Of a DNA stretch of 64,000 bases, positions 1 through 47,647 are shown one piece after another. Location: the IMG/VR virus record IMGVR_UViG_3300036790_000425, positions 1 through 64,000 of that record, one strand, 5' to 3'. Below the pieces are notes generated by a model. That model saw only the letters and a program-made list of their open reading frames with translations, did not search any database and was not told where the DNA came from. Each line of letters starts with the position of its first letter. The first letter of the stretch is position 1. The position numbers were made by a program, and so were the translations under genes. Source of the DNA: a virus.

Positions 1-56
1 CCGCCTCCGCCTCCGCCTCCGCCTCCGCCTCCGCCTCCGCCTCCGCCTCCGCCTCC
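1..56. repeat. (GCCTCC)n hexamer tandem repeat, about 9 units, encoding poly-Gly on the minus strand
   Basis: Seen directly. Confidence 0.9.
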
Positions 57-395
57 GGAGCCGCCGGAACCCCCCGGAGTGCCTCCGGAAGCACTGCCAC
101 CCTGACCCGGGGAAACGCTGATACCCGGCTGTCCGGTGGCTCCGGGGAGCGGCCGTCCGGTGTCCGGAGGTGAAGGCCGGGCAGGCGGCGGCAGCTGCCG
201 GGACGTGACCGGGGGCACCAGGCGGGCCGTGGTCGGGGTCAGCCCCGGCAGCAGCGCGCCCAGCAGGGCGACCACCATCAGCCCGACCGCCAGCAGGACC
301 ACGGCCGCGCCGCCTGCCAGCGCGCCGCCGAGGACCACGCGCATCCGCTGGGCATGATCGAGCGCCAGCGGCCGGACCCGCTTATGGAGAGCCAT
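1..395 (-). CDS. Partial membrane protein with Pro-rich and poly-Gly tail (runs off left edge)
   Basis: Manually translated from ATG 395: MALHKRVRPLALDHAQRMRVVLGGALAGGAAVVLLAVGLMVVALLGALLPG (TM), Pro-rich stretch, then (GGA GGC)n. Confidence 0.6.
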   Translation of the reverse strand, partial: MALHKRVRPLALDHAQRMRVVLGGALAGGAAVVLLAVGLMVVALLGALLPGLTPTTARLVPPVTSRQLPPPARPSPPDTGRPLPGATGQPGISVSPGQGGSASGGTPGGSGGSGGGGGGGGGGGGGGGGGG

Positions 396-5409: not shown

Positions 5410-5438
5410 TTGCTTGATACAGGTTTTCTTGCTAACTT
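5410..5438 (+). promoter_or_regulatory. Sigma70-type promoter with 17-bp operator-like element (orientation A)
   Basis: TTGCTT-17-TAACTT; core TACAGGTTTTCTTGCTA 5418-5434. Confidence 0.8.
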
Positions 5439-13464: not shown

Positions 13465-13493
13465 TGGGTAGATACAGGTTTTCTTGCTATCGT
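13465..13493 (+). promoter_or_regulatory. Promoter with 17-bp element (orientation A); leaderless start at GTG 13500
   Basis: Core 13473-13489; -10 TATCGT ends 6 nt before GTG. Confidence 0.75.
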
Positions 13494-18143: not shown

Positions 18144-18172
18144 ACGATACAGGTTTTCTTGCTAATGTGCAA
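18144..18172 (-). promoter_or_regulatory. Promoter with 17-bp element (orientation B)
   Basis: TTGCAC-ATTAGCAAGAAAACCTG-TATCGT. Confidence 0.85.
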
Positions 18173-18601: not shown

Positions 18602-18630
18602 AGAATACAGGGTTTCTTGCTAAGGTGCAA
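18602..18630 (-). promoter_or_regulatory. Promoter with 17-bp element (orientation B)
   Basis: TTGCAC-CTTAGCAAGAAACCCTG-TATTCT. Confidence 0.85.
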
Positions 18631-21582: not shown

Positions 21583-21611
21583 ACATTACAGCATTCCTTG
21601 CTAAGCTGCAA
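21583..21611. promoter_or_regulatory. Divergent promoter with 17-bp element at the strand switch
   Basis: Minus: TTGCAG-17-TAATGT; plus: -10 TAAGCT 21602-21607. Confidence 0.8.
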
Positions 21612-22187: not shown

Positions 22188-22216
22188 TTGCTCATTAGCA
22201 AGAAAGCCTGTAGTCT
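22188..22216 (+). promoter_or_regulatory. Promoter with 17-bp element (orientation B)
   Basis: TTGCTC-ATTAGCAAGAAAGCCTG-TAGTCT. Confidence 0.85.
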
Positions 22217-22472: not shown

Positions 22473-23056
22473 GCGAGCAGGCGCAGGCGAGAGTATCCGC
22501 TGATGAGCTGAGCGAGGCGATCCTGGAGATCATCCGCCTGAACGGCAGCGGAGACCTCGGGATTACCCCGAAACAGATCATGGAGCGCCTGGCTGGCTCC
22601 GCCCGGGACCTGCACCCGACGCGGGAGATCGTGCACCGCCGGCTGCACGACCTGCGCGGCCGTGGGCTGATCCGCCAGCCTGACTTCGGCATGTGGAAGC
22701 CCGTCCCGCAGCCCGTGCTCCGCTGGGACAAGCCCGCTCAGGCCGAGCCCTATGAGACCTGGGCGGAGTACCAGCCCGACGGCGGGCCGCCCGGTGCCTG
22801 GGTACCGAACATGAGCTACGCAGACCAGCACGCCTGGAAAGCGAAACTGTGCGGCCAGAAGTCGGGAGACCTGCGCACGGAGGTCCGAAAGTCCGTCGGC
22901 CCGGTCCAGGTCAAGATCGTGATCTACGAGACCGGCCAGGTGATCACCTCCCAGAACGGCACGGCCGAGTGGACAGCGGCCGAGTGGGAGCAGCTGCCGC
23001 TGGCCGTGGCCGAGGCCCGCGAGGCGATGGGGGCCTGGCGGCGGGAGCACCCGTGA
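22469..23056 (+). CDS. N-terminal winged-helix protein with second domain
   Basis: GITPKQIMERL...VHRRLHDLRGRGLIRQ. Confidence 0.7.
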   Translation: MSEQAQARVSADELSEAILEIIRLNGSGDLGITPKQIMERLAGSARDLHPTREIVHRRLHDLRGRGLIRQPDFGMWKPVPQPVLRWDKPAQAEPYETWAEYQPDGGPPGAWVPNMSYADQHAWKAKLCGQKSGDLRTEVRKSVGPVQVKIVIYETGQVITSQNGTAEWTAAEWEQLPLAVAEAREAMGAWRREHP

Positions 23057-27774: not shown

Positions 27775-28211
27775 ACCAGGCCGCGGCCGAGGCACTCACC
27801 CGGCAGCTGCTGGGCATCCACCTTCCGGCCGGGCTGGAGCCGCTGGAGTGCCCGGCCTGCGGCGGCTGGTGGCACGCCTGCCGCAACCGCGCCGGCGCGG
27901 ACCCGCGCCACGACCGGCTGGCACGCACGATGGCACGGCGCCTGGCACGCGCCGGCGCGCTGTTCCCGCGTGCCGCCGTGCTCGGGCCGGTGCTGGGCAT
28001 CCAGCCCATGTCCGCAGGCGAGGGCGCGCAGCTGGACCGCCTGGCACGGGGCGAGCCGGCCGCGAGCCACCCGTCGGCGTGCGCCAGCCAGCCAGGGTGC
28101 TGGCACGCTAAGGTGCGCCACCGGCACGCCGGCGCGGCCAGCCCCTGCGAGATGCCCGGATGCCCCTGCCTGGACTACGTGAGCCAGGCCGTGCCAGTGA
28201 GGAGCCACTGA
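27771..28211 (+). CDS. Cys-rich hypothetical protein
   Basis: GTGA coupling. Confidence 0.55.
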   Translation: MNQAAAEALTRQLLGIHLPAGLEPLECPACGGWWHACRNRAGADPRHDRLARTMARRLARAGALFPRAAVLGPVLGIQPMSAGEGAQLDRLARGEPAASHPSACASQPGCWHAKVRHRHAGAASPCEMPGCPCLDYVSQAVPVRSH

Positions 28212-28223
28212 TGGCGCGAGCAG

Positions 28224-28412
28224 ATGTCGAGCCCGCCAGGCAGGCAGGCAGGATGGAAGGTCCTGGTCATCTCATCCGTCATGATCGGCAGCAGCTGGCT
28301 GCCGATGATGCCCGCCCGGGCCGGGGAGATCGTGGTCCTGCTGGCCTTCCCCGTGATCGCCTGCGCATGGCGGCTGTTCTGGCTCGCGAGGCACCTCGGC
28401 AGGAACAGGTAG
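28224..28412 (+). CDS. Small 2-TM protein
   Basis: Hydrophobic. Confidence 0.5.
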   Translation: MSSPPGRQAGWKVLVISSVMIGSSWLPMMPARAGEIVVLLAFPVIACAWRLFWLARHLGRNR

Positions 28413-28438
28413 CGCGATACAGCTTTTCTTGCTAAGGT
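28410..28438 (+). promoter_or_regulatory. Promoter with 17-bp element (orientation A); leaderless ATG 28445
   Basis: TAGCGC-GATACAGCTTTTCTTGC-TAAGGT, ATG 6 nt later. Confidence 0.8.
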
Positions 28439-28444
28439 AACTCC

Positions 28445-28681
28445 ATGAGCGAAACGGTCCCCGCCGAGAGCCTGAAGCCCCGCGATGTCATCCTGGTCAG
28501 CCACAAGGGGCGCGACGTCCGCGTCACCATCCTGCGCGACCAGGAAGCCTGCACCGAGCAGGTCGGCCCGCTGGCGGGCGATCCCCGCATCCGGTTCTGG
28601 GCCCGCCGGGAGGACACCGGCCGGGAGGCCTGGATGATCTACGGCCCGGGCGGCGTCGTCCGGCTGGACGAGCGCGCATGA
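28445..28681 (+). CDS. Small beta-rich protein (leaderless)
   Basis: ORF after the promoter. Confidence 0.65.
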   Translation: MSETVPAESLKPRDVILVSHKGRDVRVTILRDQEACTEQVGPLAGDPRIRFWARREDTGREAWMIYGPGGVVRLDERA

Positions 28682-29838
28682 CCTGGGACGTGGTGGACCT
28701 GTTCTCGGGCGCCGGGGGCATGAGCTACGGCTTTCATGCTCACCCTGGCTTCCGGGTGACCGGTGCGGCCGACGCGCAGCTGGGCAAGCCGTCATCGGCA
28801 GCCGGCTCCCTGGGGTGCAATGCCAGCTACGAGCTGAACATGGGCATCACCCCGGTCGAGGCCAACCTCGCGGAGGCTGACCCCGCGGACGTGATAGCTG
28901 CCATGCGGCTGCCCCGGCCGGTGACCGTGCTGACTGCCTGCCCGCCGTGCACGGGCTTCACCCGCACCGTGCCCGGCAATCACCTGCGCGACGACCGGCG
29001 CAACACGCTGGTCGGGCGGGTGGCTGACTACGCGCGCATCCTGGAGCCCGAGATCATCGTGCTGGAGAACGCCCGCGAGCTGTTCCGGGGGAATTTCTCC
29101 GGGCACCTGAACGACCTCACCGCCCGCCTGGGCGGGCTGGGCTACTGGTCACGGTCAGCCGCGGTCATGCTGAGCCGCCACGGCCTGCCGCAGCGCCGCG
29201 AGCGCACCATCGTGATCGCGGTCCGGGACAGCGGAGAGGGCCCGCCCCCGGCCGGGCTGCGGCAGCTGTGGGACGGGCTGGCGCTCAGCGCCGGGGCTAT
29301 CACCGTGCGGCGCGCCCTGGGCAGCCTGGAGGGGCTGGCGGGCGATCCCCTGGACGTGGCCCCGGCCATGACGCCGGAAGTGACTGAGCGCCTGGCCGCG
29401 GTGCCGCATGACGGAGGCAGCTGGGCCAGCCTGCCCGCTGGGCTGATGACCCCGCGGATGCGGAGCCAGGCCGCGGCCGGCCGCTGGGGCAGCCACCCCG
29501 ACATCTACGGCCGGATGTGGTGGGACCGGCCGGCCCCGACGATCAAGCGCGAGTGCAGCCATGTCGGCAACGGCCGCTACGCCCACCCCGAGCTGGACCG
29601 GCTGTGCACGGTACGCGAGATGGCCGTGCTCAACGGCTTCCCGAGGGACTATCGGCTCGCCGGGTCGGTGTCGAACATGTACCGGCACATCGGGGACGCG
29701 GTGCCCCCGATGATCAGCTACCAGCTGGCCGCTGCCTGCCGGTGGATGCTGACCGGCGACCGGCCCCGCGCGGCTGAGCTGATCATGCCCGGCTGCCACC
29801 TGACGGCCGGGGACATCACCGAGGGGAGCACGTCATGA
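28678..29838 (+). CDS. DNA (cytosine-5) methyltransferase, orphan
   Basis: DLFSGAGG (I), PPC (IV), ENA (VI), PQRRER (VIII), IGDAVPP (X). Confidence 0.95.
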   Translation: MTWDVVDLFSGAGGMSYGFHAHPGFRVTGAADAQLGKPSSAAGSLGCNASYELNMGITPVEANLAEADPADVIAAMRLPRPVTVLTACPPCTGFTRTVPGNHLRDDRRNTLVGRVADYARILEPEIIVLENARELFRGNFSGHLNDLTARLGGLGYWSRSAAVMLSRHGLPQRRERTIVIAVRDSGEGPPPAGLRQLWDGLALSAGAITVRRALGSLEGLAGDPLDVAPAMTPEVTERLAAVPHDGGSWASLPAGLMTPRMRSQAAAGRWGSHPDIYGRMWWDRPAPTIKRECSHVGNGRYAHPELDRLCTVREMAVLNGFPRDYRLAGSVSNMYRHIGDAVPPMISYQLAAACRWMLTGDRPRAAELIMPGCHLTAGDITEGSTS

Positions 29839-30161
29839 CCAGGGTCATCCGGCTGGGCGAGGCCGATCAGGGGCTGCTGGACGCGCTGCTGAAGCTGCTG
29901 CTGTCCCCTGTGCTGCCCGGGGCGCCGGCGCACGCCACCACGGCCGACATCGACGCCTACCTGGACGGCGAGCCGCACCAGTGCGCCCTGTGCGGCGCCA
30001 CGGCGCGCGAGGTCTTCGCGGCCGGGGGCAGCTCGCTGGTGCCCCGGGCATGCTGGCTGGATGTGTGCCGCTCGTGCAGCTCGCGGGTGCGCCGGCTGTT
30101 CGCCTACTGGCCGGGCGACGAGGTCGCCGTGCGGCGAGCGCAGGAGCTGGGCCTGCTGTAG
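29835..30161 (+). CDS. Zn-binding hypothetical protein
   Basis: CALC...CRSC. Confidence 0.6.
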   Translation: MTRVIRLGEADQGLLDALLKLLLSPVLPGAPAHATTADIDAYLDGEPHQCALCGATAREVFAAGGSSLVPRACWLDVCRSCSSRVRRLFAYWPGDEVAVRRAQELGLL

Positions 30162-30190
30162 TTGCTCATTACAGCTTTCCTTGCTAAGAT
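30162..30190 (+). promoter_or_regulatory. Promoter with 17-bp element (orientation A)
   Basis: TTGCTC-ATTACAGCTTTCCTTGC-TAAGAT. Confidence 0.85.
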
Positions 30191-30227
30191 GGGTCTTGCA
30201 AGGGAACGACGAGCCAGGAGGCGCAAG

Positions 30228-30803
30228 ATGGGATCAGTCTTCACGCACCGCGAGCGTGGCATGAGCACCCGGGACTTCTTCCAGCGCGAGCTGAGGGATG
30301 ACATCGAGATCCTGGCCAGCGCTGTGATGGACAGCGTCTTCTACGCGGCAGTCCGGGGTGAGCGCGTCAAGGGCGAGATCACCACGTGGGCCCTGGCTTA
30401 CCCGATCTACCGCGCCAGGGGCTACCACAACTTCGGCTACAAGTGGCAGGACGAGTTCGACGGCCCGAACGCCATCACGGCCCCGGCCCGGGTGCTGGAC
30501 AGGCTAAGCCCGCTGCCCGTGTGCACGCACGGCGACGAGGTGAGCTACTGCGGCACCTGCTCCGCCCGCGACTGGCGGAAGTCCTGCCGGGCGCACGCCG
30601 GGCGCAAGGCCGCAGCTGAGAGCACGCAGGCCGGCACCGTCATCCGCCTGGCCGTCGCGGTCGAGTTCCGCAACGGCCACAAGGGCACCGACTTCGAGCT
30701 GCTCGACACCGTCAAGGGCCACGTCCGCGGCACCGACGGCCGCGTCTACAGCCTCGGCCGCGAGTGGTTCTACCGCGCCTTCGAGATCGTCCCGGCAGCC
30801 TGA
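30228..30803 (+). CDS. DUF6927-like protein
   Basis: FYAAV...NFGYKWQDEFDGP...PARVLDRLSP...DWRKSC. Confidence 0.7.
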   Translation: MGSVFTHRERGMSTRDFFQRELRDDIEILASAVMDSVFYAAVRGERVKGEITTWALAYPIYRARGYHNFGYKWQDEFDGPNAITAPARVLDRLSPLPVCTHGDEVSYCGTCSARDWRKSCRAHAGRKAAAESTQAGTVIRLAVAVEFRNGHKGTDFELLDTVKGHVRGTDGRVYSLGREWFYRAFEIVPAA

Positions 30804-30810
30804 CCGCCTG

Positions 30811-30845
30811 AGTCCGGGGAGGTTGCAGGGGCACCTCCCCGGACT
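30811..30845 (+). terminator. Hairpin terminator abutting the next promoter
   Basis: 13-bp stem AGTCCGGGGAGGT/ACCTCCCCGGACT. Confidence 0.7.
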
Positions 30846-30873
30846 TGCGCATTAGCAAGAAACCCTGTAATGT
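30845..30873 (+). promoter_or_regulatory. Promoter with 17-bp element (orientation B)
   Basis: TTGCGC-ATTAGCAAGAAACCCTG-TAATGT. Confidence 0.9.
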
Positions 30874-30908
30874 AGGTCTTGCAGGAGAACGACAGCGAGG
30901 AGGCCGGG

Positions 30909-31166
30909 ATGGACGAGCACCAGATCCGCACCGCGGACGAGCAGGACTCCCTGGACCGCGCGGTGGCCCGGTGCCCCCACGGCCGCCAGGACCGCGGTCA
31001 CCGCGTGGCCCGCGGCAGCTTCGACTGGCACTACGAGACCTGCACGGCGTGCGGCGGCGAGCGCCCCGAGCACGACGATGACGACAACTGCGGCATCTGC
31101 CAGGCCCGCGATGCGGGCACCGGCCCGGGACACGGCTGGGCCCCGGCCCCGGAGCAGGTCGCCTGA
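30909..31166 (+). CDS. Cys-rich small protein
   Basis: GAGGAGG RBS. Confidence 0.6.
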   Translation: MDEHQIRTADEQDSLDRAVARCPHGRQDRGHRVARGSFDWHYETCTACGGERPEHDDDDNCGICQARDAGTGPGHGWAPAPEQVA

Positions 31167-31426
31167 TGGGCAAGCTGCTCTGGCTGCGGCCGTCCCTGAC
31201 TGCCGACTACGAGGCAGCCCTCAAGGTGGCCTACCTGGCCTCCCTGCGGGACTACGCCGGCCGGGACACCGACGCCCTGCTGGTACTGCGGGGCCAGGCC
31301 TGCCCGCGGGACCCGGCCACCCTGGACGTCCTCCAGCGAGCCCGGGTGACCGGCATGCTGCGGGCCGTCACCGAGCTGATCGAGCAGTCCGAGCTGGCGC
31401 GGCACGCGGCCGACGCTAACCCCTGA
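31166..31426 (+). CDS. Hypothetical protein
   Basis: TGATG coupling. Confidence 0.6.
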   Translation: MGKLLWLRPSLTADYEAALKVAYLASLRDYAGRDTDALLVLRGQACPRDPATLDVLQRARVTGMLRAVTELIEQSELARHAADANP

Positions 31427-31434
31427 GGAGAGAC

Positions 31435-31806
31435 ATGAGCAGCAAGAATGAGGGCTACGGCCTGACCCTGGACGTCGTCGAGCAGATGTACCAGATCAAG
31501 CTGGAGGCCCGGCAGCGGTTCCTGCTGACCACCGGCAAGGACCTGCTGGCGCCGCTGGAGCAGCAGGCCGCCTACCTGATGCGGATGGCCCTGACTCCGT
31601 GCAAGTGCCCGGCCTGCAAGGCCGTCATCTGCCTGGCGTCGGCCGCCGATGACGGATACAACCCCGAGAGCAGTGTCGTGACCGGCGATGACTCCTACGG
31701 CTGCCCGTTCTGCCAGGCGCGGCTGCACTGGTTCCTGACCCTCAGCGGCCACCAGGGATTCGAACTCCAGGACGGCCAGACGATCACGACCGGGAAGCCT
31801 GCCTGA
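31435..31806 (+). CDS. Zn-ribbon protein
   Basis: CPAC...CPFC. Confidence 0.65.
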   Translation: MSSKNEGYGLTLDVVEQMYQIKLEARQRFLLTTGKDLLAPLEQQAAYLMRMALTPCKCPACKAVICLASAADDGYNPESSVVTGDDSYGCPFCQARLHWFLTLSGHQGFELQDGQTITTGKPA

Positions 31807-31807
31807 G

Positions 31808-32473
31808 ATGCCCTTCACGCCAGAGCAGACGCGCCGCTACATCTTCGCCAGCCCGGAGCCCGGCCTGAAGGTCACGGAGATCCTGGAGGTCATCAGCCGG
31901 GCCGGGGCGCCTGGCGACGGCCGGGTGGTCATAAGCCTGCCGAAGAACATTCCGGGCGAGGTCAGGTTCGAGATCCTGAATGCCCTGCGCCGGGCCTACC
32001 GCTACGGCCGTGAGGACCACGCCCTGGACGCGCCGCCCGAGGAGACGACCGGCAGCCAGGACCTGGGCGCTGCCTGGGACGGCGGGGCCATCATGGCCCG
32101 GGCGGTCCACGGGCATGACCCCGATCCCGGCGAGCACGTGCACGTCCAGCGGACCCGCTACGTGCACAGCCACGATGGCGGCACCGCCGAGCACTCGCAC
32201 TCGCATCCGCACGGCAGCTCTGAGGAGCCCCGGGAAGGACCATCCGGAGTGGTGAGGGTGCCGCCCCGGGCGCTGGCTCGCCGGGCGGCTGACCGCTGGG
32301 TCGGCGGCCTGGAGACCGCCCAGGCGCTCAGGCCCTCGCTGCTGGATGACGGCGTCCCGGAGTTCCTGGACGGCTACGACGACTTCCACGTCCACCAGGG
32401 GCCCGACGGAAGGCGCTGGCTGCACGCCCATGACGGCGGTCCCGCCGAGCACGAGCACAGGAGCGAGTCATGA
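31808..32473 (+). CDS. His-repeat protein
   Basis: HSHDGGTAEHSH and HAHDGGPAEHEH. Confidence 0.6.
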   Translation: MPFTPEQTRRYIFASPEPGLKVTEILEVISRAGAPGDGRVVISLPKNIPGEVRFEILNALRRAYRYGREDHALDAPPEETTGSQDLGAAWDGGAIMARAVHGHDPDPGEHVHVQRTRYVHSHDGGTAEHSHSHPHGSSEEPREGPSGVVRVPPRALARRAADRWVGGLETAQALRPSLLDDGVPEFLDGYDDFHVHQGPDGRRWLHAHDGGPAEHEHRSES

Positions 32474-32865
32474 TCCGGCAGGAGCGGTTCCTGATCAGCC
32501 AGCGGCTCTACGCGGTCCGCCTGAACCCGATGAACATGCTCAGCGAGGGCCTGCCGGGCGGGCACTTCCGGATCGTCGTGCCGGCTGTGTGGTTCCGGCG
32601 CCGGCACGGCATGACAATCGCGGTCGCCGGGGACCTGTGGGACCTCCAGGATGACCGGCCGGGCACGGTGGAGGAGGCCCTGGCCCGCCACGATGACGGC
32701 CGCTACGGCGGCGACTGGCGTGCTCGCCTGGACGACCGCGGCAGATTCTTCACGGCCGGCCCCGCGACTGCCTGGCAGCAGCAGAAGTACCTGACACTGC
32801 TGCGGCAGATGCTGGATCACTACCCCGCGGCCCCGGATGGCTGGGACGGCTGGTGGCGGTTCTGA
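32470..32865 (+). CDS. Hypothetical protein
   Basis: ATGA coupling. Confidence 0.65.
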   Translation: MIRQERFLISQRLYAVRLNPMNMLSEGLPGGHFRIVVPAVWFRRRHGMTIAVAGDLWDLQDDRPGTVEEALARHDDGRYGGDWRARLDDRGRFFTAGPATAWQQQKYLTLLRQMLDHYPAAPDGWDGWWRF

Positions 32866-33158
32866 TGGCAGTCCGGCGCGTCTCGACATCACCCCGGCTG
32901 GGCACGCCGCTCGGGCTGCGGCTGCGCGGCAGCTCGCTGGCCGTGGTGGTCGTGGTGACCGAGCCGGGGCGGACCAGGATGGCAGTCGAGGTCCACGGCC
33001 CTGAGAGCGTCCTGAGCGCCGTTACCGGGAAGATGCACGGCGATATCTGGACCCTCACCTGGCCGCACTCCGGGGGCGCCGGGGACGGCTGCACGGCCGT
33101 GTTCTGGGTGCCCGAGGGAACTGAGCTGGACGTCTCCGGCGCCCGGATCCTGCGCTGA
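32865..33158 (+). CDS. Hypothetical protein
   Basis: TGATG coupling. Confidence 0.55.
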   Translation: MAVRRVSTSPRLGTPLGLRLRGSSLAVVVVVTEPGRTRMAVEVHGPESVLSAVTGKMHGDIWTLTWPHSGGAGDGCTAVFWVPEGTELDVSGARILR

Positions 33159-33159
33159 G

Positions 33160-33188
33160 TTGCACATTAGCAAGAAACCCTGTAATGT
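33160..33188 (+). promoter_or_regulatory. Promoter with 17-bp element (orientation B)
   Basis: TTGCAC-ATTAGCAAGAAACCCTG-TAATGT. Confidence 0.9.
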
Positions 33189-33226
33189 GGTTCTTGCAAG
33201 GGAACGACGACGACAGGAGACGCGAG

Positions 33227-33556
33227 ATGGCCGCTCAGCTGCTGGACACCAGCAACGACGTATGGCGCGACTGCGATGCGCAGGAGCTGCTGGCCATGAT
33301 CGGCCACCGCAACGTGCTGGCCATCTCGGGCGGCCGGGTCCTCCGGCATCCCCGCGGCGGCGTGACGCTGCCGGTCGGCCACGGCTACTCGGTCACCATC
33401 GACCTGGCCGCCAACGACACCTGGACCGTCCGCCGGATCTTCAAGCGCGGGAGCAAGATCTTCCTGCACGGCGAGGAGGCCGAGGTCTACAGCGAGGAGC
33501 TGGGCCAGGCCGCCTACCGCGCCTCGTGCTACGTGAACGTGGCCTTCGGGGAGTGA
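33227..33556 (+). CDS. Actinophage-type hypothetical protein
   Basis: IGHRNVLAISGGR...LAANDTWTVRR...AAYRASC. Confidence 0.7.
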   Translation: MAAQLLDTSNDVWRDCDAQELLAMIGHRNVLAISGGRVLRHPRGGVTLPVGHGYSVTIDLAANDTWTVRRIFKRGSKIFLHGEEAEVYSEELGQAAYRASCYVNVAFGE

Positions 33557-33558
33557 CG

Positions 33559-33834
33559 ATGAGCGACGAGCTGGCCCGGGTCCGGGACAAGCGGAACACC
33601 TACCACGGCGTGTACGCCGCGCGGGTGCTCCGCCGCCGGGCTCAGCCCCTGCACGTCGTGCGGGCGCTGCGGTTCACCGACCACGGCCTCCGGCAGGTCT
33701 ACTTCGACCGCCAGGCCCTGTGCGGCGTAGTGGCCGCCGGGCACATCGAGTCAGGCGACCCGCGCAAGCCCGGGAACGCCACGTGCGACACCTGCCGCCG
33801 CGAGTACGCGAAGACCAGGAAGGACCCGAGATGA
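33559..33834 (+). CDS. Zn-binding hypothetical protein
   Basis: H...ALCG...TCDTC. Confidence 0.6.
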   Translation: MSDELARVRDKRNTYHGVYAARVLRRRAQPLHVVRALRFTDHGLRQVYFDRQALCGVVAAGHIESGDPRKPGNATCDTCRREYAKTRKDPR

Positions 33835-34001
33835 TCGCCAGCAAGGCCGCCAGACGCCGGGCCCGGACCCTCGTGACCCCGGGCAGCGGGCCGGTGTGGA
33901 CGGCCTACCGTAACGGGCAGCGCGCCGGCACGCACGGCCGGAACCGGGCTTCTGACCGGGCCAACAACCGCCGCAAGGCGATCCAGGAGGCCTCGCAGTA
34001 G
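33831..34001 (+). CDS. Small basic protein
   Basis: ATGA coupling. Confidence 0.5.
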   Translation: MIASKAARRRARTLVTPGSGPVWTAYRNGQRAGTHGRNRASDRANNRRKAIQEASQ

Positions 34002-34032
34002 CGGGGCCCGACCATCCACCGAGGGAGACGGC

Positions 34033-34236
34033 ATGACCATATTCCACCTGTTCCTGGCCGGGCTGTTCCACGCCGAGCAGCACCTGCACTACATGCAGCA
34101 CTCCGGCTTCCGGCTGCACGGCTGTCACTACCAGTCGTTCAGGCACGCCACCGGGCACGGCGCCTGGCGCACCATCGGCCGCCTGGTCTGCCCGTTCCAG
34201 CAGAACGTGCACATCGTCCAGCCCGCAGGCAGGTAG
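34033..34236 (+). CDS. Small His-rich protein
   Basis: GAGGGAG RBS. Confidence 0.5.
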   Translation: MTIFHLFLAGLFHAEQHLHYMQHSGFRLHGCHYQSFRHATGHGAWRTIGRLVCPFQQNVHIVQPAGR

Positions 34237-34275
34237 GACCGCACCCGGGGCCCGGGGATCTCCTCGGGCCCTGAG

Positions 34276-34304
34276 TTGCGCATTACAGGGTTTCTTGCTA
34301 ATGT
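34276..34304 (+). promoter_or_regulatory. Promoter with 17-bp element (orientation A), preceded by hairpin 34248-34271
   Basis: TTGCGC-ATTACAGGGTTTCTTGC-TAATGT. Confidence 0.9.
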
Positions 34305-34341
34305 TGGTCTTGCAGGGAAGACGACAGCTGAGGAGCCCCGG

Positions 34342-35178
34342 ATGAGCCAGCCAGACCCCCGCCAGCACGACGAGGCCACGCGCGACCTGTACGAGGCGCA
34401 GGCGAAGGCCGGCCGTCAGGTCAAGATCGAGCTGGAGCGGGTGCACCAGCACGCGGGCGACCGGCGCGACCGCTACGCCGGCGGCTGGGTCATGAAGAAC
34501 TCCGAGGCGCTGGGCGCGACCACCCCGGACGCCCTGTCCCGCTTCCAGGCCGCCGCCCGCGAGGCCGCCCGCCTGGCGGATGAGATCAACGACATGGACG
34601 CGATCTACGCCACCTACCGGTGGAGCCGATACTTCCTGGTCACCAACACGGGCGGCCACGTGCACCGCGACAGGACCTGCCCCACCTGCTTCCCGGCTAC
34701 CCAGTACCACTGGCTGCCCGAGCTGTCCGGCTGCGACGAGGCCGCCATGATCACCGAGTTCGGTGAGAAGGCCTGCACCGTCTGCTTCCCGGACGCGCCC
34801 GTCAACCCGGCCTACCACGCGCCGGGCCGCCGCGACCGCGCCGCCATCGAGGCCCGGGACGCTGAGAAGGCCGGGCGCGAGGCCAAGAAGGCCGCGAAGA
34901 ACCTGACCGAGGGCCAGCAGTTCCGGGTGGACGGCAGCCGGGTCGAGACCGTGCACGGGTGCATCGAGGTGCTGCGCAGCGAAGTCGAGTTCCGCGACTA
35001 CTACGGCAACGGCGAGCACCCGTTCCACGCCGACTACGCCCGGGGCGCGGCCGAGGCCGCCCGGGTGCTGCTGGCCCGCGAGGCCGCCGCCCCCGGCACC
35101 GGCAAGACCCAGGCCGAGATCAGCACGATCATCGAGCGCGCGATCATCCGGAACCGGAAGGACGGCGCGCGGATCTGA
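34342..35178 (+). CDS. Actinophage-type Zn-binding protein
   Basis: WSRYFLV...GHVH...CPTC...WLPELSG...CTVCFPDAP. Confidence 0.75.
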   Translation: MSQPDPRQHDEATRDLYEAQAKAGRQVKIELERVHQHAGDRRDRYAGGWVMKNSEALGATTPDALSRFQAAAREAARLADEINDMDAIYATYRWSRYFLVTNTGGHVHRDRTCPTCFPATQYHWLPELSGCDEAAMITEFGEKACTVCFPDAPVNPAYHAPGRRDRAAIEARDAEKAGREAKKAAKNLTEGQQFRVDGSRVETVHGCIEVLRSEVEFRDYYGNGEHPFHADYARGAAEAARVLLAREAAAPGTGKTQAEISTIIERAIIRNRKDGARI

Positions 35179-35702
35179 TGGACGCCAGCACGACCGCAGA
35201 CCGCGAGAGGAGCGGCATGACCGAGGTAACCGCGACCGGCGAGACGATCACCCTGACGCTGAGCGACGGGGAGACGCGCCAGGCCGGGCTGCTGCCGGAC
35301 GGCAGCTGGTGCTGCCCGTGGGACGGCACCCCGTGCGTCCCCGGCCAGGAGCACTACGACCGCCGCGGCTGGGATGCCCCGTGCCCGAGCCCGGCGTGCG
35401 TGGCCGGCGGCTGGTCCAGCCTGGAGCAGGTCACCCAGGTCAAGCTGGAGCAGCGGCGCCGCCAGGAGGCTGCCTCACAGCGCTCCTGGCTGGCTAAGGC
35501 CCAGGAGGAGCAGCGCGAGGCACGGGAGAAGTCCCGCCGCGCCGCGGTCTCCGCCTTCGTGGCCGAGGCCGGGGAGTCCGGCGCGTGCGTGCCCTGCTGG
35601 AGCAAGTCCACCAGCCACGGCATGTTCCTGGACCGGCCGCGGGTCATCCGGCACCGCCGGGCCGACACCTGCCCGCTGCGGCGCCGGGAGGGGGCGTCAT
35701 GA
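35178..35702 (+). CDS. Cys-rich hypothetical protein
   Basis: TGATG coupling. Confidence 0.6.
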   Translation: MDASTTADRERSGMTEVTATGETITLTLSDGETRQAGLLPDGSWCCPWDGTPCVPGQEHYDRRGWDAPCPSPACVAGGWSSLEQVTQVKLEQRRRQEAASQRSWLAKAQEEQREAREKSRRAAVSAFVAEAGESGACVPCWSKSTSHGMFLDRPRVIRHRRADTCPLRRREGAS

Positions 35703-35980
35703 CCGGGCGCGAGCCGGAGGTCATGCAGAGCGACGGCCGGGCCAGCCGGCGGGTGCTGCGCCGGCTGTCAGGTCACCTGGACCGCATCGACCGGCTCGGG
35801 CACGTCACCCGCCAGGCCCAGAGGTCCTTCGCCGTCCAGGCGTGCATCGCGATCATGAAGCGCGAGTGCGCGGCCGGGGTCGGCCACAAGGCCGGGTCCG
35901 AGCCGGACTCCTGCGGTGCCTGCACCCAGACCCGGGCCATCCTCCGGGTGATCCGCCAGCTGGCAGGGATGAAGCCGTGA
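35699..35980 (+). CDS. Hypothetical protein
   Basis: ATGA coupling. Confidence 0.55.
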   Translation: MTGREPEVMQSDGRASRRVLRRLSGHLDRIDRLGHVTRQAQRSFAVQACIAIMKRECAAGVGHKAGSEPDSCGACTQTRAILRVIRQLAGMKP

Positions 35981-36258
35981 GGACCTACGTCACGGCCCTG
36001 GCCAGCGCGGCCGGGCACGACCCGGAGTGCTTCTACGTCACCATCCGGCGGACCCGGCAGACCGCCTGGCTGCTGGGGCCCTACGGCACCCGGGCGGAGG
36101 CAGCCGGGCGCGTCCCCGCCGGCCGCCGGCTGGCTCACCGGGCTGATCCCCGCACCGCGTTCGACCACTTCGGCGTCACCCGCGTGGGCGTGCCGCCGGG
36201 CCAGCCCGCGCCGCCGGGCAAGCTGAACCACCTGCTGGAGGCAGAGAGCGATGACTGA
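35977..36258 (+). CDS. Hypothetical protein
   Basis: FYVTI...LLGPY...FGVT...PGKLN. Confidence 0.65.
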   Translation: MRTYVTALASAAGHDPECFYVTIRRTRQTAWLLGPYGTRAEAAGRVPAGRRLAHRADPRTAFDHFGVTRVGVPPGQPAPPGKLNHLLEAESDD

Positions 36259-36997
36259 CTACATCCTGGAGCTGAGCAGCTTCGGCGGCATCGTGGCCGG
36301 GGCCGTGCACTGGCGCGGCCGGGTCCGGGGGCCGCACCCGAAGTCCTGCCACGGCGGCACGGTCTTCAATGCTCCGGAGTCACGCGGCAAGACCACGTGC
36401 ACTGAAGGCCACGAGCTGCCCGTGCGGATCGAGTGGGAGGTGGAGCAGGCCTGGACGGCCGAGCAGTACGAGCGCTACGCCGCCCGGCACTTCGACGGGG
36501 ACTCCCCTTCCCAGTTCCGGACCGCGATGGCCGTGGTCGAGACCGCGATCGCCCGGTTCCGGGGCGATCTGCCCGTCCGCGAGTACGACGAGAAGACCTA
36601 CCCGGGTGAGCCGGCTGACCGGCTGTTCCTGGACTTCATCCCGTTCGACGACAGCGACATCGACGAGGAGTGGGGCCGCCAGCAGGGCACCCCGCCCTAT
36701 GGCAGCATCCTGACTGAGATCCCGGTCTCCCGGCTGCTGACCGTGACCGAGCGGACCATCCTGCGGCACTGGCTCCAGGTTCTGTCCGAGCAGGCGAAGA
36801 CCGTCCGGGTCGCCCTGGGCAAGCCGGACCTGAAGATCACGACCGACATCTGGCAGGGCCAGTGGACGGCCCTGAAAGGGAACCTGGACGCCATCACAGA
36901 TGACCTGTGCGGCCGTGCCGAGCCCGAGGGACCCTCAGGAGCACCCGCCGTGAGTAACGAGCCGGCGGCCGGCCCCGGGTCCGCAGAGACCGCCTGA
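36251..36997 (+). CDS. Hypothetical protein
   Basis: Coupled; natural composition. Confidence 0.65.
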   Translation: MTDYILELSSFGGIVAGAVHWRGRVRGPHPKSCHGGTVFNAPESRGKTTCTEGHELPVRIEWEVEQAWTAEQYERYAARHFDGDSPSQFRTAMAVVETAIARFRGDLPVREYDEKTYPGEPADRLFLDFIPFDDSDIDEEWGRQQGTPPYGSILTEIPVSRLLTVTERTILRHWLQVLSEQAKTVRVALGKPDLKITTDIWQGQWTALKGNLDAITDDLCGRAEPEGPSGAPAVSNEPAAGPGSAETA

Positions 36998-36999
36998 GA

Positions 37000-37028
37000 G
37001 CCGGGATTAGCAAGCAAGACTGTATCGT
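37000..37028 (+). promoter_or_regulatory. Promoter with degenerate 17-bp element (orientation B), poor -35
   Basis: ATTAGCAAGCAAGACTG-TATCGT. Confidence 0.7.
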
Positions 37029-37056
37029 TAGAGCAGCAGGAGAGAGGAGCAGCCTG

Positions 37057-37329
37057 ATGTCCCGCCAGGATCACTCGCACGAGGCCGGCCAGGTGCGCGG
37101 CGCCGTCAGCCGGGACGAGGTACGTGACCTGGCCCGGCGGCTGGGTCAGGTCGAGCGGCAGCTGGAGATCGAGAGCGAGATCGTCCGCACGATCATCGGC
37201 GCCAGCCCGCAGACCGCCGTGGCAATCCTCCAGACCCTGGCCTGGCGGGCCCGGGACCTGGACCAGGCCGGCCAGCACAACATGGCCGCGGCGATGCTCC
37301 GGGTGATCGAGGAGGCACGGCCATGCTGA
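37057..37329 (+). CDS. Hypothetical helical protein
   Basis: GAGGAG RBS. Confidence 0.65.
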   Translation: MSRQDHSHEAGQVRGAVSRDEVRDLARRLGQVERQLEIESEIVRTIIGASPQTAVAILQTLAWRARDLDQAGQHNMAAAMLRVIEEARPC

Positions 37330-37403
37330 TCCTGCTGGCCATCGACGAGTGCCTGGCCCGGCACATCAACCAGACCCTGAACTGACCCCGAAAGGACCCC
37401 CTC

Positions 37404-37541
37404 ATGATTCGCACCGCATTCGGATGGCTTGTCGCCATCGTTGTCGTCGTCTACTTCGTCAAGCACGGAGGACAAGTTGGCGGCTGGGTTCACGAGGGCT
37501 TCCAGTCGCTCTCGAACTTCGTGAGCCAGGTAAGCAGCTGA
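37404..37541 (+). CDS. 45-aa single-TM protein
   Basis: AAAGGA RBS; MIRTAFGWLVAIVVVVYFVKH. Confidence 0.55.
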   Translation: MIRTAFGWLVAIVVVVYFVKHGGQVGGWVHEGFQSLSNFVSQVSS

Positions 37542-37542
37542 G

Positions 37543-38157
37543 ATGACCAGACGGCAGCGCCGCCAGGGCGTCCTGATGTCGCCCCTGGCACTGCCCGTGA
37601 CAGGCCTCGGGGGCTGGATCTACCTTGGGGAGCCCCTGCACTGGGCCGGCATGACGGCGGTGCTCTGCCTGTGCGGGGCCATCGCCGTGGTGCTGCCCGC
37701 GCTGGTCATCTCAGCGCGCGGCGTGCCGCTGATCCTGATCCCGGTGGGGGTGCGCAAGTGGTACCGGCAGCGGGCAAAGGACGCCCGGGGCGATGACTAC
37801 CGGCCGCATATCCCGATGTACCTCCAGCGCGCCATAAAGGCGGCCGACCGGAACCGGTGCGCCTACTGCAAGACGCCCTACGCCGGGCCGCGGAGCCTCC
37901 AGCTCGATCACTTCCGGCCGTTCTCCCAGGGCGGCCTGACCGTGTTCTGGAACATGCTCACCCTGTGCGCCCGGTGCAACCGGATCAAGTGCGACTACTG
38001 GGTCAGCCGGAAGCAGCGCCGCTACGGCTACTACACCTACAACCCGTTCGCCGGGGCCGGCAACGCCGCGCTGGCCGCGCAGATCCTGGCCTTCGAGCGC
38101 TGGCACCGGTTCAGTCCCGGCCGGTGGATCCGGGCCGGGCTGTCTCTCGCGGCCTGA
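37543..38157 (+). CDS. HNH endonuclease with N-terminal TM segments
   Basis: CAYC...LQLDHFRPFSQGG...NMLTLCARCNRIK; hydrophobic N-terminus. Confidence 0.85.
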   Translation: MTRRQRRQGVLMSPLALPVTGLGGWIYLGEPLHWAGMTAVLCLCGAIAVVLPALVISARGVPLILIPVGVRKWYRQRAKDARGDDYRPHIPMYLQRAIKAADRNRCAYCKTPYAGPRSLQLDHFRPFSQGGLTVFWNMLTLCARCNRIKCDYWVSRKQRRYGYYTYNPFAGAGNAALAAQILAFERWHRFSPGRWIRAGLSLAA

Positions 38158-38166
38158 CGGAACGGG

Positions 38167-38195
38167 TTGCGCATTACAGGGTTTCTTGCTAATGT
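38167..38195 (+). promoter_or_regulatory. Promoter with 17-bp element (orientation A), identical to 34276-34304
   Basis: TTGCGC-ATTACAGGGTTTCTTGC-TAATGT. Confidence 0.9.
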
Positions 38196-38233
38196 CGTCT
38201 TAGCAAGGAAGACGACATCAAGAGGAGCCCAGG

Positions 38234-38437
38234 ATGACCACCGCTACCGCCCCCGCCATCAGCCCGGCCTACGCCGCCGCCGTGACCGAGACCGCCGGGA
38301 TGATCGGCAGCGAGGTCTCGCAGCTGGCCTACGAGGCCGTCATCGCCCGCCCGGCGCAGCCGGAGCGCGCCGCCGCCCTGTGCTCGATCGCCGCAGCCCT
38401 GCACGAGGCCCGCGTGGCCGCCGGGATCGCGTGGTGA
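38234..38437 (+). CDS. Small Ala-rich protein
   Basis: GAGGAG RBS. Confidence 0.6.
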   Translation: MTTATAPAISPAYAAAVTETAGMIGSEVSQLAYEAVIARPAQPERAAALCSIAAALHEARVAAGIAW

Positions 38438-38757
38438 CCGTGAGCAAGTACCCGCCGCTGCCGGAGGCAGGTCCCTACAAGACCTGGACTCCGTGCCCGG
38501 AAGACAAGATCGACATCCACGTCATCCTGACGCTCCAGAAGACCGTCTACGGTCCCTGCACCATCGGCAGCATCAATCTCGGTCCCGGGACGAGAGCAGA
38601 AATGAGCGAGCACCGGGCGAGCGTCTTCCGGCTGGACCGCCCCGCTAGCCGGGCAGAGATCCTCGACCGGATGCTGGAGGCTTTCCCGGAGCATCTCCGG
38701 GACGGGGTCATCCTGGCCTTCACTGCGGAGCCCGTGCTGATCGGAGACCGGTCGTGA
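38434..38757 (+). CDS. Hypothetical protein
   Basis: GTGA coupling. Confidence 0.6.
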   Translation: MTVSKYPPLPEAGPYKTWTPCPEDKIDIHVILTLQKTVYGPCTIGSINLGPGTRAEMSEHRASVFRLDRPASRAEILDRMLEAFPEHLRDGVILAFTAEPVLIGDRS

Positions 38758-39044
38758 GCCAGTTCAGCGAGGGCGACCTGGTGGAGGCCGGCGGCGACCG
38801 CTGGACTGTCATCAGCTACCGGCCGGCGACCCCGTACAAAGACGCTTGCGTCACCGTCGGCCGCACCACGGCGGGGGACGCCTCGGTGTGCTCGGTCGTC
38901 CGTGACTTCCCGGAGGCCGAGGTCACCCTGGTCACCCGGATGCTGGACCGCACCATGATCATGCAGCGCCACTGGGGCGGCCTGGTCATCTGCCGCGATA
39001 AGGCCGGCGATGTCATCCTCACCTACATCGAGGGGGAGAAGTGA
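38754..39044 (+). CDS. Hypothetical protein
   Basis: GTGA coupling. Confidence 0.6.
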   Translation: MSQFSEGDLVEAGGDRWTVISYRPATPYKDACVTVGRTTAGDASVCSVVRDFPEAEVTLVTRMLDRTMIMQRHWGGLVICRDKAGDVILTYIEGEK

Positions 39045-39715
39045 GCACTGCGATATCGGCTGCGCTAGACGCCTGGCGCGACTCGATGGACGAGCACGGC
39101 CACATCAAGGGCGAACCGCACTGCCTGGGCTGCGGCCGGAAGCTGAACGCCGACGGGTACCACCCGGCCGAGACCTACGGGGGCACCTACAACGGGCTGT
39201 GCTACGGCTGCACGAAGAAGGGCTCGTTCGTGCTGGCGGTCGCCGTCCTGGACGGCTGCCGCAAGATCAGCTACCCGCCGCACTGCCCGTCCTGGCGCCG
39301 CGACCGCGAGGTGTTCTACGGCTACCCGGGGTGCGAGACGTGCTCGGGTCAGGGCGTCAGCAGCATCGGCCGGGAAGGCTACCGGACCCAGTGCAAGGCC
39401 TGCCTGGACCAGTGCATGCAGCACCCGCTGCGCGCCCGGGACCAGGACTGGCGCTGGAGGCTGGAGTCATCCATCCGGCGATCCAGCCGGTATGCCCTGC
39501 TGCGCGCCCTGGGCGTGCCTAAGCGTGCCTCCGGCAAGGCCGAGAACGCTGCCCTGGAGCAGCTGTCCGAGGAGATCAAGGATCAGGTCCGCCGGGAGAT
39601 GGGACCGCGCGTGATGCGGCTCAGGGCCCTGGCCCGGGCCAGGGCCGAGCGGACCCAGGTGAACGTCTGGCTGCCGCCCGCGCTGTGGACCACCGCAGCG
39701 GACCGGGCAGCGTGA
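39041..39715 (+). CDS. Multi-CxxC Zn-binding protein
   Basis: CLGC, CYGC, CETC, CKAC. Confidence 0.65.
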   Translation: MSTAISAALDAWRDSMDEHGHIKGEPHCLGCGRKLNADGYHPAETYGGTYNGLCYGCTKKGSFVLAVAVLDGCRKISYPPHCPSWRRDREVFYGYPGCETCSGQGVSSIGREGYRTQCKACLDQCMQHPLRARDQDWRWRLESSIRRSSRYALLRALGVPKRASGKAENAALEQLSEEIKDQVRREMGPRVMRLRALARARAERTQVNVWLPPALWTTAADRAA

Positions 39716-39903
39716 GCTACGGCGAGCCCGAGCCGTGCCTGAAGCCGCGGTGCCCGAGGACGGCCGGCCGCAGCAAGTACGAGCGCATCCGGGCGGGGGC
39801 GGAGGGCTGGTTCTTCCCCCGGGACGGCGGCGCCTGGTGCCCGGATCACCTGCCGTCGTGGGTGCCCGCCTGGCGGGCCCGGAACAAGGAGGACCAGAAA
39901 TGA
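39712..39903 (+). CDS. Small hypothetical protein
   Basis: AEGWFF...AWCPDH. Confidence 0.55.
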   Translation: MSYGEPEPCLKPRCPRTAGRSKYERIRAGAEGWFFPRDGGAWCPDHLPSWVPAWRARNKEDQK

Positions 39904-40835
39904 GCACGCTGTCCTGCCTGGAGATCTGCGCCGGGGCCGGGGGCCAGCTCCTCGGGCTGGAGCAGGCCGGCTTCGGGCACGTGGCCGCCGCCGAGATCGA
40001 CCCCGACGCCTGCACCACGCTGCGCGTCAACCGGCCCGGCCTGAAGGTGATCGAGGGCGACATCCGGGAGCTGGACGGGCGGCAGTTCGCCGGCATCGAC
40101 CTGCTGGCCGGCGGGGTACCCTGCCCGCCGTTCTCGGTCGGCGGAAAGCAGCTGGGCGAGCAGGACGAGCGGAACCTGTTCCCCGAGGCCCTGCGGCTGA
40201 TCAGGGAGGCCCGGCCGCGTGCCGTCATGCTGGAGAACGTGCCCGGCCTGGCCCAGAAGCAGTTCGCCGGCTACTGCTGGGAAGTGATAACCGGCCTGAC
40301 CGCGATGGGCTACCGGCACACCACCTGGGAGATCATCCAGGCTAGTGACCACGGCGTGCCGCAGCTGCGGCCCCGCTACGTCCTGGTGGCCTGCCGGGAC
40401 CAGTTCGCCTGCCGTCCCCGGCCGCAGGAGGGCCCGCCCCTGACGGTGGGCGAGACCCTGCTGGACCTGATGGCGGCAGGCGGCTGGGAAGGCGCGCATG
40501 AGTGGGCCGGGGTTGCTCACGGGATAGCCCCTACGATCGTCGGCGGCAGCAAGAAGCACGGCGGGCCCGATCTCGGGCCGACGCGCGCTCGCGCCGCCTG
40601 GGCAAAGCTGGGAGTAGACGGCCGCAGCGTGGCTGATGCTCCCCCGCCGCCTGGATACGCAGGCCTGCCGCGACTGACTGTCCCGATGGTAGCGCGCATC
40701 CAGGGCGTCCCGGATGACTGGGTCATCACCGGCCGCAAGACCACTGCCTACCGGCAGGTAGGAAATATGTTCCCGCCGCCCGTCGCCCGGGCCGTGGGCC
40801 TGAGCATCCGGGCTGCCCTCACGAGCGGAGACTGA
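39900..40835 (+). CDS. DNA (cytosine-5) methyltransferase, M.NaeI/M.NgoMIV-like (predicted GCCGGC), orphan
   Basis: EICAGAGG, GGVPCPPFS, ENV, PQLRPR; APTIVGGSKKHGGPDLGPTRA matches the recalled M.NaeI target-recognition region. Confidence 0.9.
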   Translation: MSTLSCLEICAGAGGQLLGLEQAGFGHVAAAEIDPDACTTLRVNRPGLKVIEGDIRELDGRQFAGIDLLAGGVPCPPFSVGGKQLGEQDERNLFPEALRLIREARPRAVMLENVPGLAQKQFAGYCWEVITGLTAMGYRHTTWEIIQASDHGVPQLRPRYVLVACRDQFACRPRPQEGPPLTVGETLLDLMAAGGWEGAHEWAGVAHGIAPTIVGGSKKHGGPDLGPTRARAAWAKLGVDGRSVADAPPPPGYAGLPRLTVPMVARIQGVPDDWVITGRKTTAYRQVGNMFPPPVARAVGLSIRAALTSGD

Positions 40836-47618: not shown

Positions 47619-47647
47619 AGACTAATACAGGTTTTCTTGCTAGTCAA
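47619..47647 (-). promoter_or_regulatory. Promoter with 17-bp element (orientation B, register shifted 3 bp)
   Basis: TTGACT-AGCAAGAAAACCTGTAT-TAGTCT. Confidence 0.8.

Follow-up and report, generated by a model that had tools for sequence, protein, structure and literature searches.

Short repeated sites bound by a phage protein are known from Cluster A actinophages, whose operators and stoperators are asymmetric and occur in more than 20 copies per genome. The stoperators are 13-mers that lie mostly outside promoters, their orientation follows transcription, and their reversal abolishes repression (PMC9283540); the repressor (L5 gp71, TipsytheTRex) is a monomer with two DNA-binding domains (PMC9283540, PMC6550527). 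Cluster O phages (Corndog) carry more than 30 copies of a 17-bp repeat, which are perfect 7-3-7 palindromes with a predicted dimeric binder, with about one third of the copies inside genes and most without promoter association (PMC4351075). Here we describe a 17-bp element, TAGCAAGAAAMCCTGTA (TA-N13-TA), in the phage record IMGVR_UViG_3300036790_000425 (162,435 bp, 70% G+C, complete according to CheckV; referred to as G000), the first 64 kb of which is the stretch that was analyzed and is called the window. The element is found in the spacers of promoters, which throughout were predicted from sequence, conservation, register, and gene context, and it faces either way (A, GCAAG-first relative to transcription; B, the opposite orientation). 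With a probability of about 0.6, we read the 17-mer as the operator of a phage-encoded regulator that is usable either way and rarely inverted, with no programmed switch.

The element resembles the Cluster A sites in being a short, asymmetric sequence present in more than 20 copies in an actinophage genome, and the class of Cluster A sites that overlaps a promoter and blocks initiation is the nearest precedent for a site in a spacer. The asymmetric Cluster A site also implies an asymmetric binder. In contrast to Cluster A, the sequence is unrelated, all good copies are located in promoter spacers instead of mostly outside promoters, orientation is uncorrelated with transcription (28 A:37 B), and no repressor or integrase was found in the searches described below. 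The phages studied here and those of Cluster O are both actinophages that are not obviously temperate, and the Cluster O repeats resemble a palindrome, CAAGG-WW-CCTTG, of two sister phages (G006 and G007); unlike those repeats, the 17-mer is asymmetric, and its place is always within a promoter. An operator family that sits in promoter spacers and is asymmetric yet used both ways is probably a novel form of such repeated phage sites.

A preliminary description of this DNA had reported an exact 13-bp inversion within the spacers of co-oriented paralogous promoters, and its four strings match the record base for base. The sequence CATTA-GCAAGAAACCCTG-TAATG lies at 30850-30872 and 33165-33187, and the exact reverse-complement core is found at 34281-34303 and 38172-38194, between co-oriented TTGCGC (-35) and TAATGT (-10) hexamers. 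In full, the strings at 30845 and 33160 begin with TTGCGC and TTGCAC, respectively, and continue as AT-TAGCAAGAAACCCTGTA-ATGT, while those at 34276 and 38167 both read TTGCGC-AT-TACAGGGTTTCTTGCTA-ATGT. The pairing of 33160 with 38167, as a second inverted pair beside 30845 and 34276, was likewise borne out, and at all four sites a flip leaves the -35 and -10 hexamers and their 17-bp spacing intact. The 23-mer CATTA-N13-TAATG occurs in four copies without mismatches, two per orientation, against an expectation of 0.00 from shuffled sequence (0.02 for the bare CATTA/TAATG frame). An assembly artefact is an unlikely source of the inversion, because the inverted arms of 5 bp are far under any assembler word size and because an independent assembly from a second study shows the same orientations.

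The four copies belong to a larger family, within which they are the best conserved; G000 has 26 sites at ≤3 mismatches and 30 at ≤4; 27 of these 30 are intergenic, and the majority lie 11 to 50 bp upstream of a start codon. Searching with the motif identified relatives in IMG/VR, namely G001 (165 kb), G002 (82 kb), G003 (68 kb), and likewise G005. In G000, the 17-mer spans positions -27 to -11 of about 25 intergenic putative promoters of the form TTGcnC-17-TAnnnT, and essentially all good copies lie within a promoter spacer. The register is fixed in every good copy (TTGcnC, two bases, the 17-mer, three bases, T), so that the TAnnnT -10 hexamer begins with the last TA of the 17-mer and the spacer measures 17 bp. 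Across 57 sites in G000 to G003, which are intergenic and correctly oriented, the consensus is TTGc.C/TAatgT with equal register in A and B. The sites thus have the layout of sigma-70/sigma-A promoters, with -35 and -10 elements 16 to 18 bp apart upstream of genes, and also that of operators, being repeated, conserved beyond their flanks, and overlapping core promoter elements. The 17-mer hardly varies between genomes that share 30 to 60% protein identity. The most frequent AT-rich 10-mer is TAGCAAGAAA in both G000 and G001, and TAGCAAGGAA in G008, a further relative.

At many copies in G000, and especially in G008, an ATG or GTG follows TAnnnT by 6 to 7 nt. This is the geometry of leaderless actinobacterial mRNAs, and it gives independent support for both the assignment of the -10 element and the transcriptional direction. 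The -35 element is weak at most copies in G008, where an ATG lies 6 nt after the -10 (e.g., at 22689, 37169, 102775, and 149061); the genes of this class are largely leaderless there, and 19 of the 23 copies are in B. No sigma-70 region 2 or 4 domain was found in the phage, nor was there a match to a T7-type RNA polymerase, although the latter negative is weak since that search rang in no control genome. The sites are therefore read as promoters of the host polymerase.

The 278-amino-acid (aa) protein encoded downstream of the 34284 promoter (promoters in the window are named here by the first base of their 17-mer) has relatives in 71 viral contigs, and among these loci the 17-mer is confined to a narrow clade of G000 to G003 plus G008. 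Together with G005, at least five related IMG/VR phages carry it. The complete sister phages G006 and G007, in which the 278-aa protein has relatives at 49 to 57% identity, lack the 17-mer and carry instead the 12-bp palindrome CAAGG-WW-CCTTG, with seven exact copies in G007. Five palindrome copies sit at spacer positions 5 to 16 of TTGnnn-17-TAnnnT frames, which is the register of form B; examples of the palindrome in a spacer are G007:46441-46469 and 94275-94303, and G006:140003 and 1869. G007 also holds a few asymmetric copies and looks intermediate. Compared with the palindrome, the 12-mer of the clade, CAAGA-AA-CCCTG, has one base changed per half-site, and on this ground the element is best read as a dyad operator with broken symmetry. 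The sister phages show both TA-12mer-N-TA and TA-N-12mer-TA frames, suggesting that the two-way fit around the TA...TA axis predates the asymmetry.

Within the clade, one half-site is GCAAGA and the other is CAGGG or CAGCT. The symmetric combinations TAGCAAG...CTTGCTA and TACAG...CTGTA have zero occurrences in four genomes, which makes the element genuinely bipartite and asymmetric. On the same ground, a site for a symmetric homodimer whose half-sites drift was rejected in this clade. We also searched outside the clade. Among 185,579 prokaryote species (one genome each), only 84 scattered singletons were found, in unrelated and mostly low-GC taxa, which we estimate to be at about chance level; a host regulon or prophage origin was rejected on this result. 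With neither a host regulon nor a prophage copy, the reader of the site is most likely phage-encoded. Megablast of positions 28000-40000 of the window against 50,697 deposited phages gave no match, and a literature search with the motif strings returned unrelated matches only.

It could also be argued that no dedicated protein is involved and that the AT-rich cassette is an intrinsic element that strengthens promoters in a 70% G+C genome, acting through spacer shape or curvature or through a contact with the host polymerase or its partners. The constant location in the spacer at a fixed register would suit such an element, as would the lack of a phage sigma factor and a search for a regulator that gave none. 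However, near-identity over 17 bp among phages with 30 to 60% protein identity is a degree of specificity well beyond what shape would require, the spacer has a direction for RNA polymerase and yet both orientations occur, and the A-tract shifts by 3 bp upon flipping. In addition, the palindrome of the sister phages is the signature of a dimeric binder, and the motif is absent from host genomes. We consider an intrinsic element quite improbable.

Invertible promoter switches, such as fimS/FimB-FimE, hin/Hin, and the Bacteroides invertons, likewise have, at a promoter, an inverted segment flanked by inverted repeats. In these systems the whole promoter is inverted (hundreds of bp), a nearby recombinase and longer repeats are needed (known inverton arms are about 9 to 30 bp), and both forms coexist in culture. 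None of these further traits was seen here. The preliminary description had offered a switchable micro-inversion as one of its two readings, and exact reverse-complement cores between short inverted repeats at four paralogous promoters are indeed what would be expected if a phage or host recombinase acted reversibly on CATTA/TAATG as a programmed phase switch. It had also remarked that no recombinase is visible in the window, and this extends to the complete 162-kb genome, in which Resolvase (PF00239), Phage_integrase (PF00589), and IS110/Piv-type (PF01548) domains had no match, while the same searches rang in control genomes. The inverted arms are 5 to 6 bp at the four copies and only TA...TA (2 to 3 bp) at most of the 57 promoters, short of the flanking repeats of about ≥9 bp that mark invertons, and as single-stranded DNA they fold weakly (-1 to -3 kcal/mol).

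The orientations observed in metagenomic assemblies also speak against a switch. The sequence was present, in each case as contigs, in three soil runs, namely the source run (X1), a run from a second study (X2), and a third run (X3), and it was present in no RNA run. The source run yielded one identical 28-kb contig. In X2, contigs of a near-identical strain cover 30853, 33168, 34284, 37008, and 38175 with 0 to 5 differences per contig; an inverted core would add 11 differences to this comparison, and orientation was unchanged at 5/5 covered sites. Short joints listed at likeness 85 (sides of 20 to 24 nt) were regarded as noise. In X3, which is about 10% diverged, there are only two single-nucleotide polymorphisms across 38172-38194, and orientation is kept at 38175; a single diverged contig of X3 also covers 34284. 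With orientation fixed in two independent assemblies and, as shown below, inherited over long divergence, phase variation is already largely refuted and we regard it as very improbable. A tempting false lead, that of a 13-bp phase switch, is thereby removed.

Both orientations are in regular use. Confident promoters number 27 A:30 B in the four genomes G000 to G003 and 28 A:37 B when G008 is included, with ratios that differ by lineage (12:6 in G002, 4:19 in G008). Read along the block of co-directional early genes in the window, the sites are 28418 B, 30170 B, 30853 A, 33168 A, 34284 B, 37008 A, and 38175 B. One strongly selected sequence used both ways will produce exact reverse-complement paralogs, which alone do not date an inversion. 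An absolute-strand polarity, as in Chi- or KOPS-like sequences linked to replication or translocation, was considered and rejected, since absolute orientation in G001 and G008 follows gene direction and promoter class and not genome position or GC skew.

We compared orthologous promoters, as the preliminary description had proposed, and found orientation to be mostly inherited. It was kept in 25 of 32 promoter pairs located before homologous genes, and 9 of 13 promoter families were uniform, compared to about 5 expected if random; some uniform families span four genomes at 27 to 50% protein identity. The four families with a change of orientation all lie in the mosaic early region. One is that of the 278-aa gene, whose promoter has form B in G000 and G001 and form A in G002 and G003; another is that of the promoter following the HNH gene, with B in G000 and G001 and A in G002. 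This endonuclease gene (37543-38157, PF01844) lies directly upstream of the 38175 promoter, a position kept in G001, G002, and G003. Judged by these comparisons, orientation behaves as an inherited, slowly evolving character in which flips are rare.

One of these changes could be aligned closely. When 34284 is set against its ortholog at G003 65249, the alignment of the flanks extends through the start codon, with 12/14 identical positions on the left and 42/53 on the right, whereas the core matches at 2/13 positions directly and at 12/13 as the reverse complement. The alignment indicates a clean in-place flip, with limits anywhere between 13 and 23 bp. Template-switch mutations are known to invert a few to tens of bases in place between short inverted repeats in one replication event (PMC5453318, PMC8794818), and such a micro-inversion would be the most economical origin of the 34284 flip. 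The present case differs from sporadic template-switch mutations in that both products appear as functional states of a selected site, across about 100 promoters of the clade. Micro-inversion by template switching and exchange among paralogous promoters are both plausible sources of flips. The second reading of the preliminary description, a historical inversion spread by recombination, is thus upheld in essence through the flip at the 278-aa gene promoter. Its restriction to four paralogs was too narrow, as the dimorphism is genome- and clade-wide and older than these paralogs, and the palindromic ancestry had been missed.

The early region also shows a sign of cassette exchange. Gene 30228-30803 (191 aa, an ORFan), a hairpin, and a second promoter are absent from G003 (30162-30873 of the window compared to G003:61415-61530), where one B promoter drives the ortholog of the 30909 gene. 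Gene 30228-30803 with its hairpin and promoter resembles a cassette of one gene that was gained or lost between repeated promoters. A comparable arrangement was reportedly described by Arbiol, Comeau, and Krisch in 2010 for the PeSL cassettes of T4-type phages, where repeated early promoters, some with a stem-loop, are said to flank small ORFans in a hyperplastic region and apparently to mediate the gain and loss of cassettes. The promoter type differs between the two, and PeSL lack a conserved invertible spacer element.

We propose the following model for the operator reading. The TA-N13-TA cassette at -27 to -11 of host-type (sigma-A-like) promoters would be bound by a DNA-binding regulator encoded by the phage, in competition with RNA polymerase for the spacer and positions -12/-11, and the bound protein would keep the polymerase out in either orientation. 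Because the TA...TA frame has two-fold symmetry and the core would have descended from the palindrome CAAGG-WW-CCTTG, the site could fit and work both ways. Divergence of the half-sites would make orientation visible and would imply an asymmetric binder, e.g., a heterodimer or a two-module protein. Orientation would change through rare micro-inversion, when replication switches template at the short palindromic arms, and also when promoter cassettes are exchanged within the mosaic early region, with no programmed recombinase responsible. If so, the family represents the main class of promoters in an uncultured actinophage clade with genomes of about 160 kb, together with its probable master operator, and would offer a handle on the regulator and temporal programme of the clade. 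It would also be a natural example of an operator whose dyad symmetry was lost relative to sister phages, and of an asymmetric site tolerated both ways at single-base register in a promoter, in contrast to the Cluster A stoperators.

To find the regulator, we used a phylogenetic profile (present in G001 and G008, absent from G006), which returned 26 proteins; the sole recognizable DNA binder among them was an HTH_17/MerR-like protein of 67 aa (G000:141703-141906, minus strand), with 71 to 78% identity in G001, G003, G005, G007, and G008. It is a weak candidate for the cognate regulator.

Several observations weigh against the operator reading. The HTH_17 protein is present in the sister phage G007 while absent from G006, which breaks the expected pattern, and among about 50 proteins scanned with Pfam and PHROG there was no repressor, no sigma factor, and no WhiB-like protein; the majority of early proteins had no family match. 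Such an exact register is more than a plain steric repressor should require, and a generic scan with a strict Escherichia coli consensus calls none of these predicted promoters. Contigs show one orientation per locus, and a minor flipped subpopulation would be invisible in them. Finally, orientation tracks the core variant, with ..ACCCTG predominating in A and ..AAGCTG in B (Fisher p = 5e-4), and leaderless starts follow 32/65 B compared to 9/40 A sites, although the sites are related as paralogs or orthologs and these figures overstate the evidence. The two correlations hint that orientation may not be neutral.

These correlations bear on a different explanation, in which orientation itself is the regulatory signal and an asymmetric regulator faces RNA polymerase differently in A and B, giving activation or repression, or early or middle timing, so that micro-inversions would rewire timing while leaving promoter strength untouched. 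The strict asymmetry of the element, the lineage-specific A:B ratios, and the 9 of 13 loci that conserve orientation over deep divergence all fit this explanation, as do the associations with core variant and with leaderless or leadered genes, and orientation decides function in the L5 stoperator system (PMC9283540). However, rare inversions and inheritance alone account for the conservation, and the associations come from paralogs and orthologs that are not independent. Moreover, A and B promoters are intermixed along a single block of small co-directional early genes and have the same leader, orthologous genes tolerate either state, and the ancestral operator was palindromic. An orientation signal is unlikely. 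Slightly more doubtful is the full form of this idea, that operator direction is a regulatory code for sign or timing and that 13-bp micro-inversions move gene cassettes between temporal classes; if true, the broken symmetry of an ancestral palindromic operator would have created an extra bit of information.

The coordinates of the sites in the window are collected in Table 1.

Table 1. Predicted promoters with the 17-bp element, and related copies, in the window (first 64 kb of G000)
Feature	Orientation	Positions	Strand	Details
Putative promoter	A	30845..30873	+	-35 TTGCGC 30845-30850; -10 TAATGT 30868-30873; gene ATG 30909
Parts of the 30845 promoter		30853..30869	+	17-mer TAGCAAGAAACCCTGTA; core 30855-30867
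Putative promoter	A	33160..33188	+	-35 TTGCAC; 17-mer 33168-33184; -10 TAATGT; gene 33227
Putative promoter	B	34276..34304	+	-35 TTGCGC; 17-mer TACAGGGTTTCTTGCTA 34284-34300; -10 TAATGT; 278-aa gene 34342-35178
Putative promoter	B	38167..38195	+	17-mer 38175-38191; gene 38234; just 3' of HNH gene
Putative promoter, variant core	B	30162..30190	+	TTGCTC-AT-TACAGCTTTCCTTGCTA-AGAT; gene 30228-30803; B in G003 too
Putative promoter	B	28410..28438	+	TAGCGC ... TAAGGT; ATG 6 nt after -10, leaderless gene 28445; G003 also B
Putative promoter	A	22188..22216	+	TTGCTC-AT-TAGCAAGAAAGCCTGTA-GTCT
Putative promoter	A	21583..21611	-	TTGCAG ... TAATGT; sole element between divergent starts 21547 (-) and 21648 (+)
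Putative promoter	A	18602..18630	-	Exact core
Putative promoter	A	18144..18172	-	G003 ortholog also A
Putative promoter	B	5410..5438	+	TTGCTT ... TAACTT; G003 ortholog also B
Element between divergent genes	B for plus-strand gene	13465..13493	+	Leaderless GTG 13500; direction ambiguous
Degenerate copy	A	37000..37028	+	Poor -35 GCCGGG; upstream of gene 37057; G003 likewise A
Shifted-register copy		47619..47647	-	TTGACT-17-TAGTCT; GCAAG end toward -35; heads UDG operon

The 33160 promoter has 6-bp arms (ACATTA/TAATGT), and its orthologs in G003 and G002 are likewise A. The single copies at 21583-21611 and 13465-13493 lie between divergent genes, with TAnnnT on both strands, and one cassette in such a position may serve both directions, as A for one gene and as B for the other.

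The early promoters of both orientations share a leader, GGTCTTGCAAGGGAACGAC, at 30874-30895, 33189-33212, 34305-34328, and 38196-38218, which contains the perfect palindrome CTTGCAAG and in this way presents a GCAAG half-site on both strands. A role for RNA structure formed by core and leader was dropped, since the helices are possible in orientation A only. A G+C-rich hairpin (30810..30844, plus strand; -30.8 kcal/mol, z -4.4) adjoins the -35 element of the 30853 promoter, and a comparable one lies at 34243-34276 (-28.6 kcal/mol); with hairpins at only two of the four promoters first described, a hairpin-promoter cassette was rejected as a general unit.

Two C5 cytosine DNA methyltransferase genes are located in the early block, at 28678-29838 and 39900-40835 (PF00145; E = 2.5e-31 and 1.6e-60, respectively). 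Elsewhere in the genome, a 284-aa protein (G000:150225-151079) is 98 to 99% identical in G001 and G003, compared to 40 to 80% for other shared proteins, and is either extremely constrained or recently exchanged. At both ends of the record (window 1-60 and G000:162300-162435), the same CCGCCT hexamer repeats and adjoining sequence were found, and these overlapping ends indicate that the assembly is circularly closed or terminally redundant.

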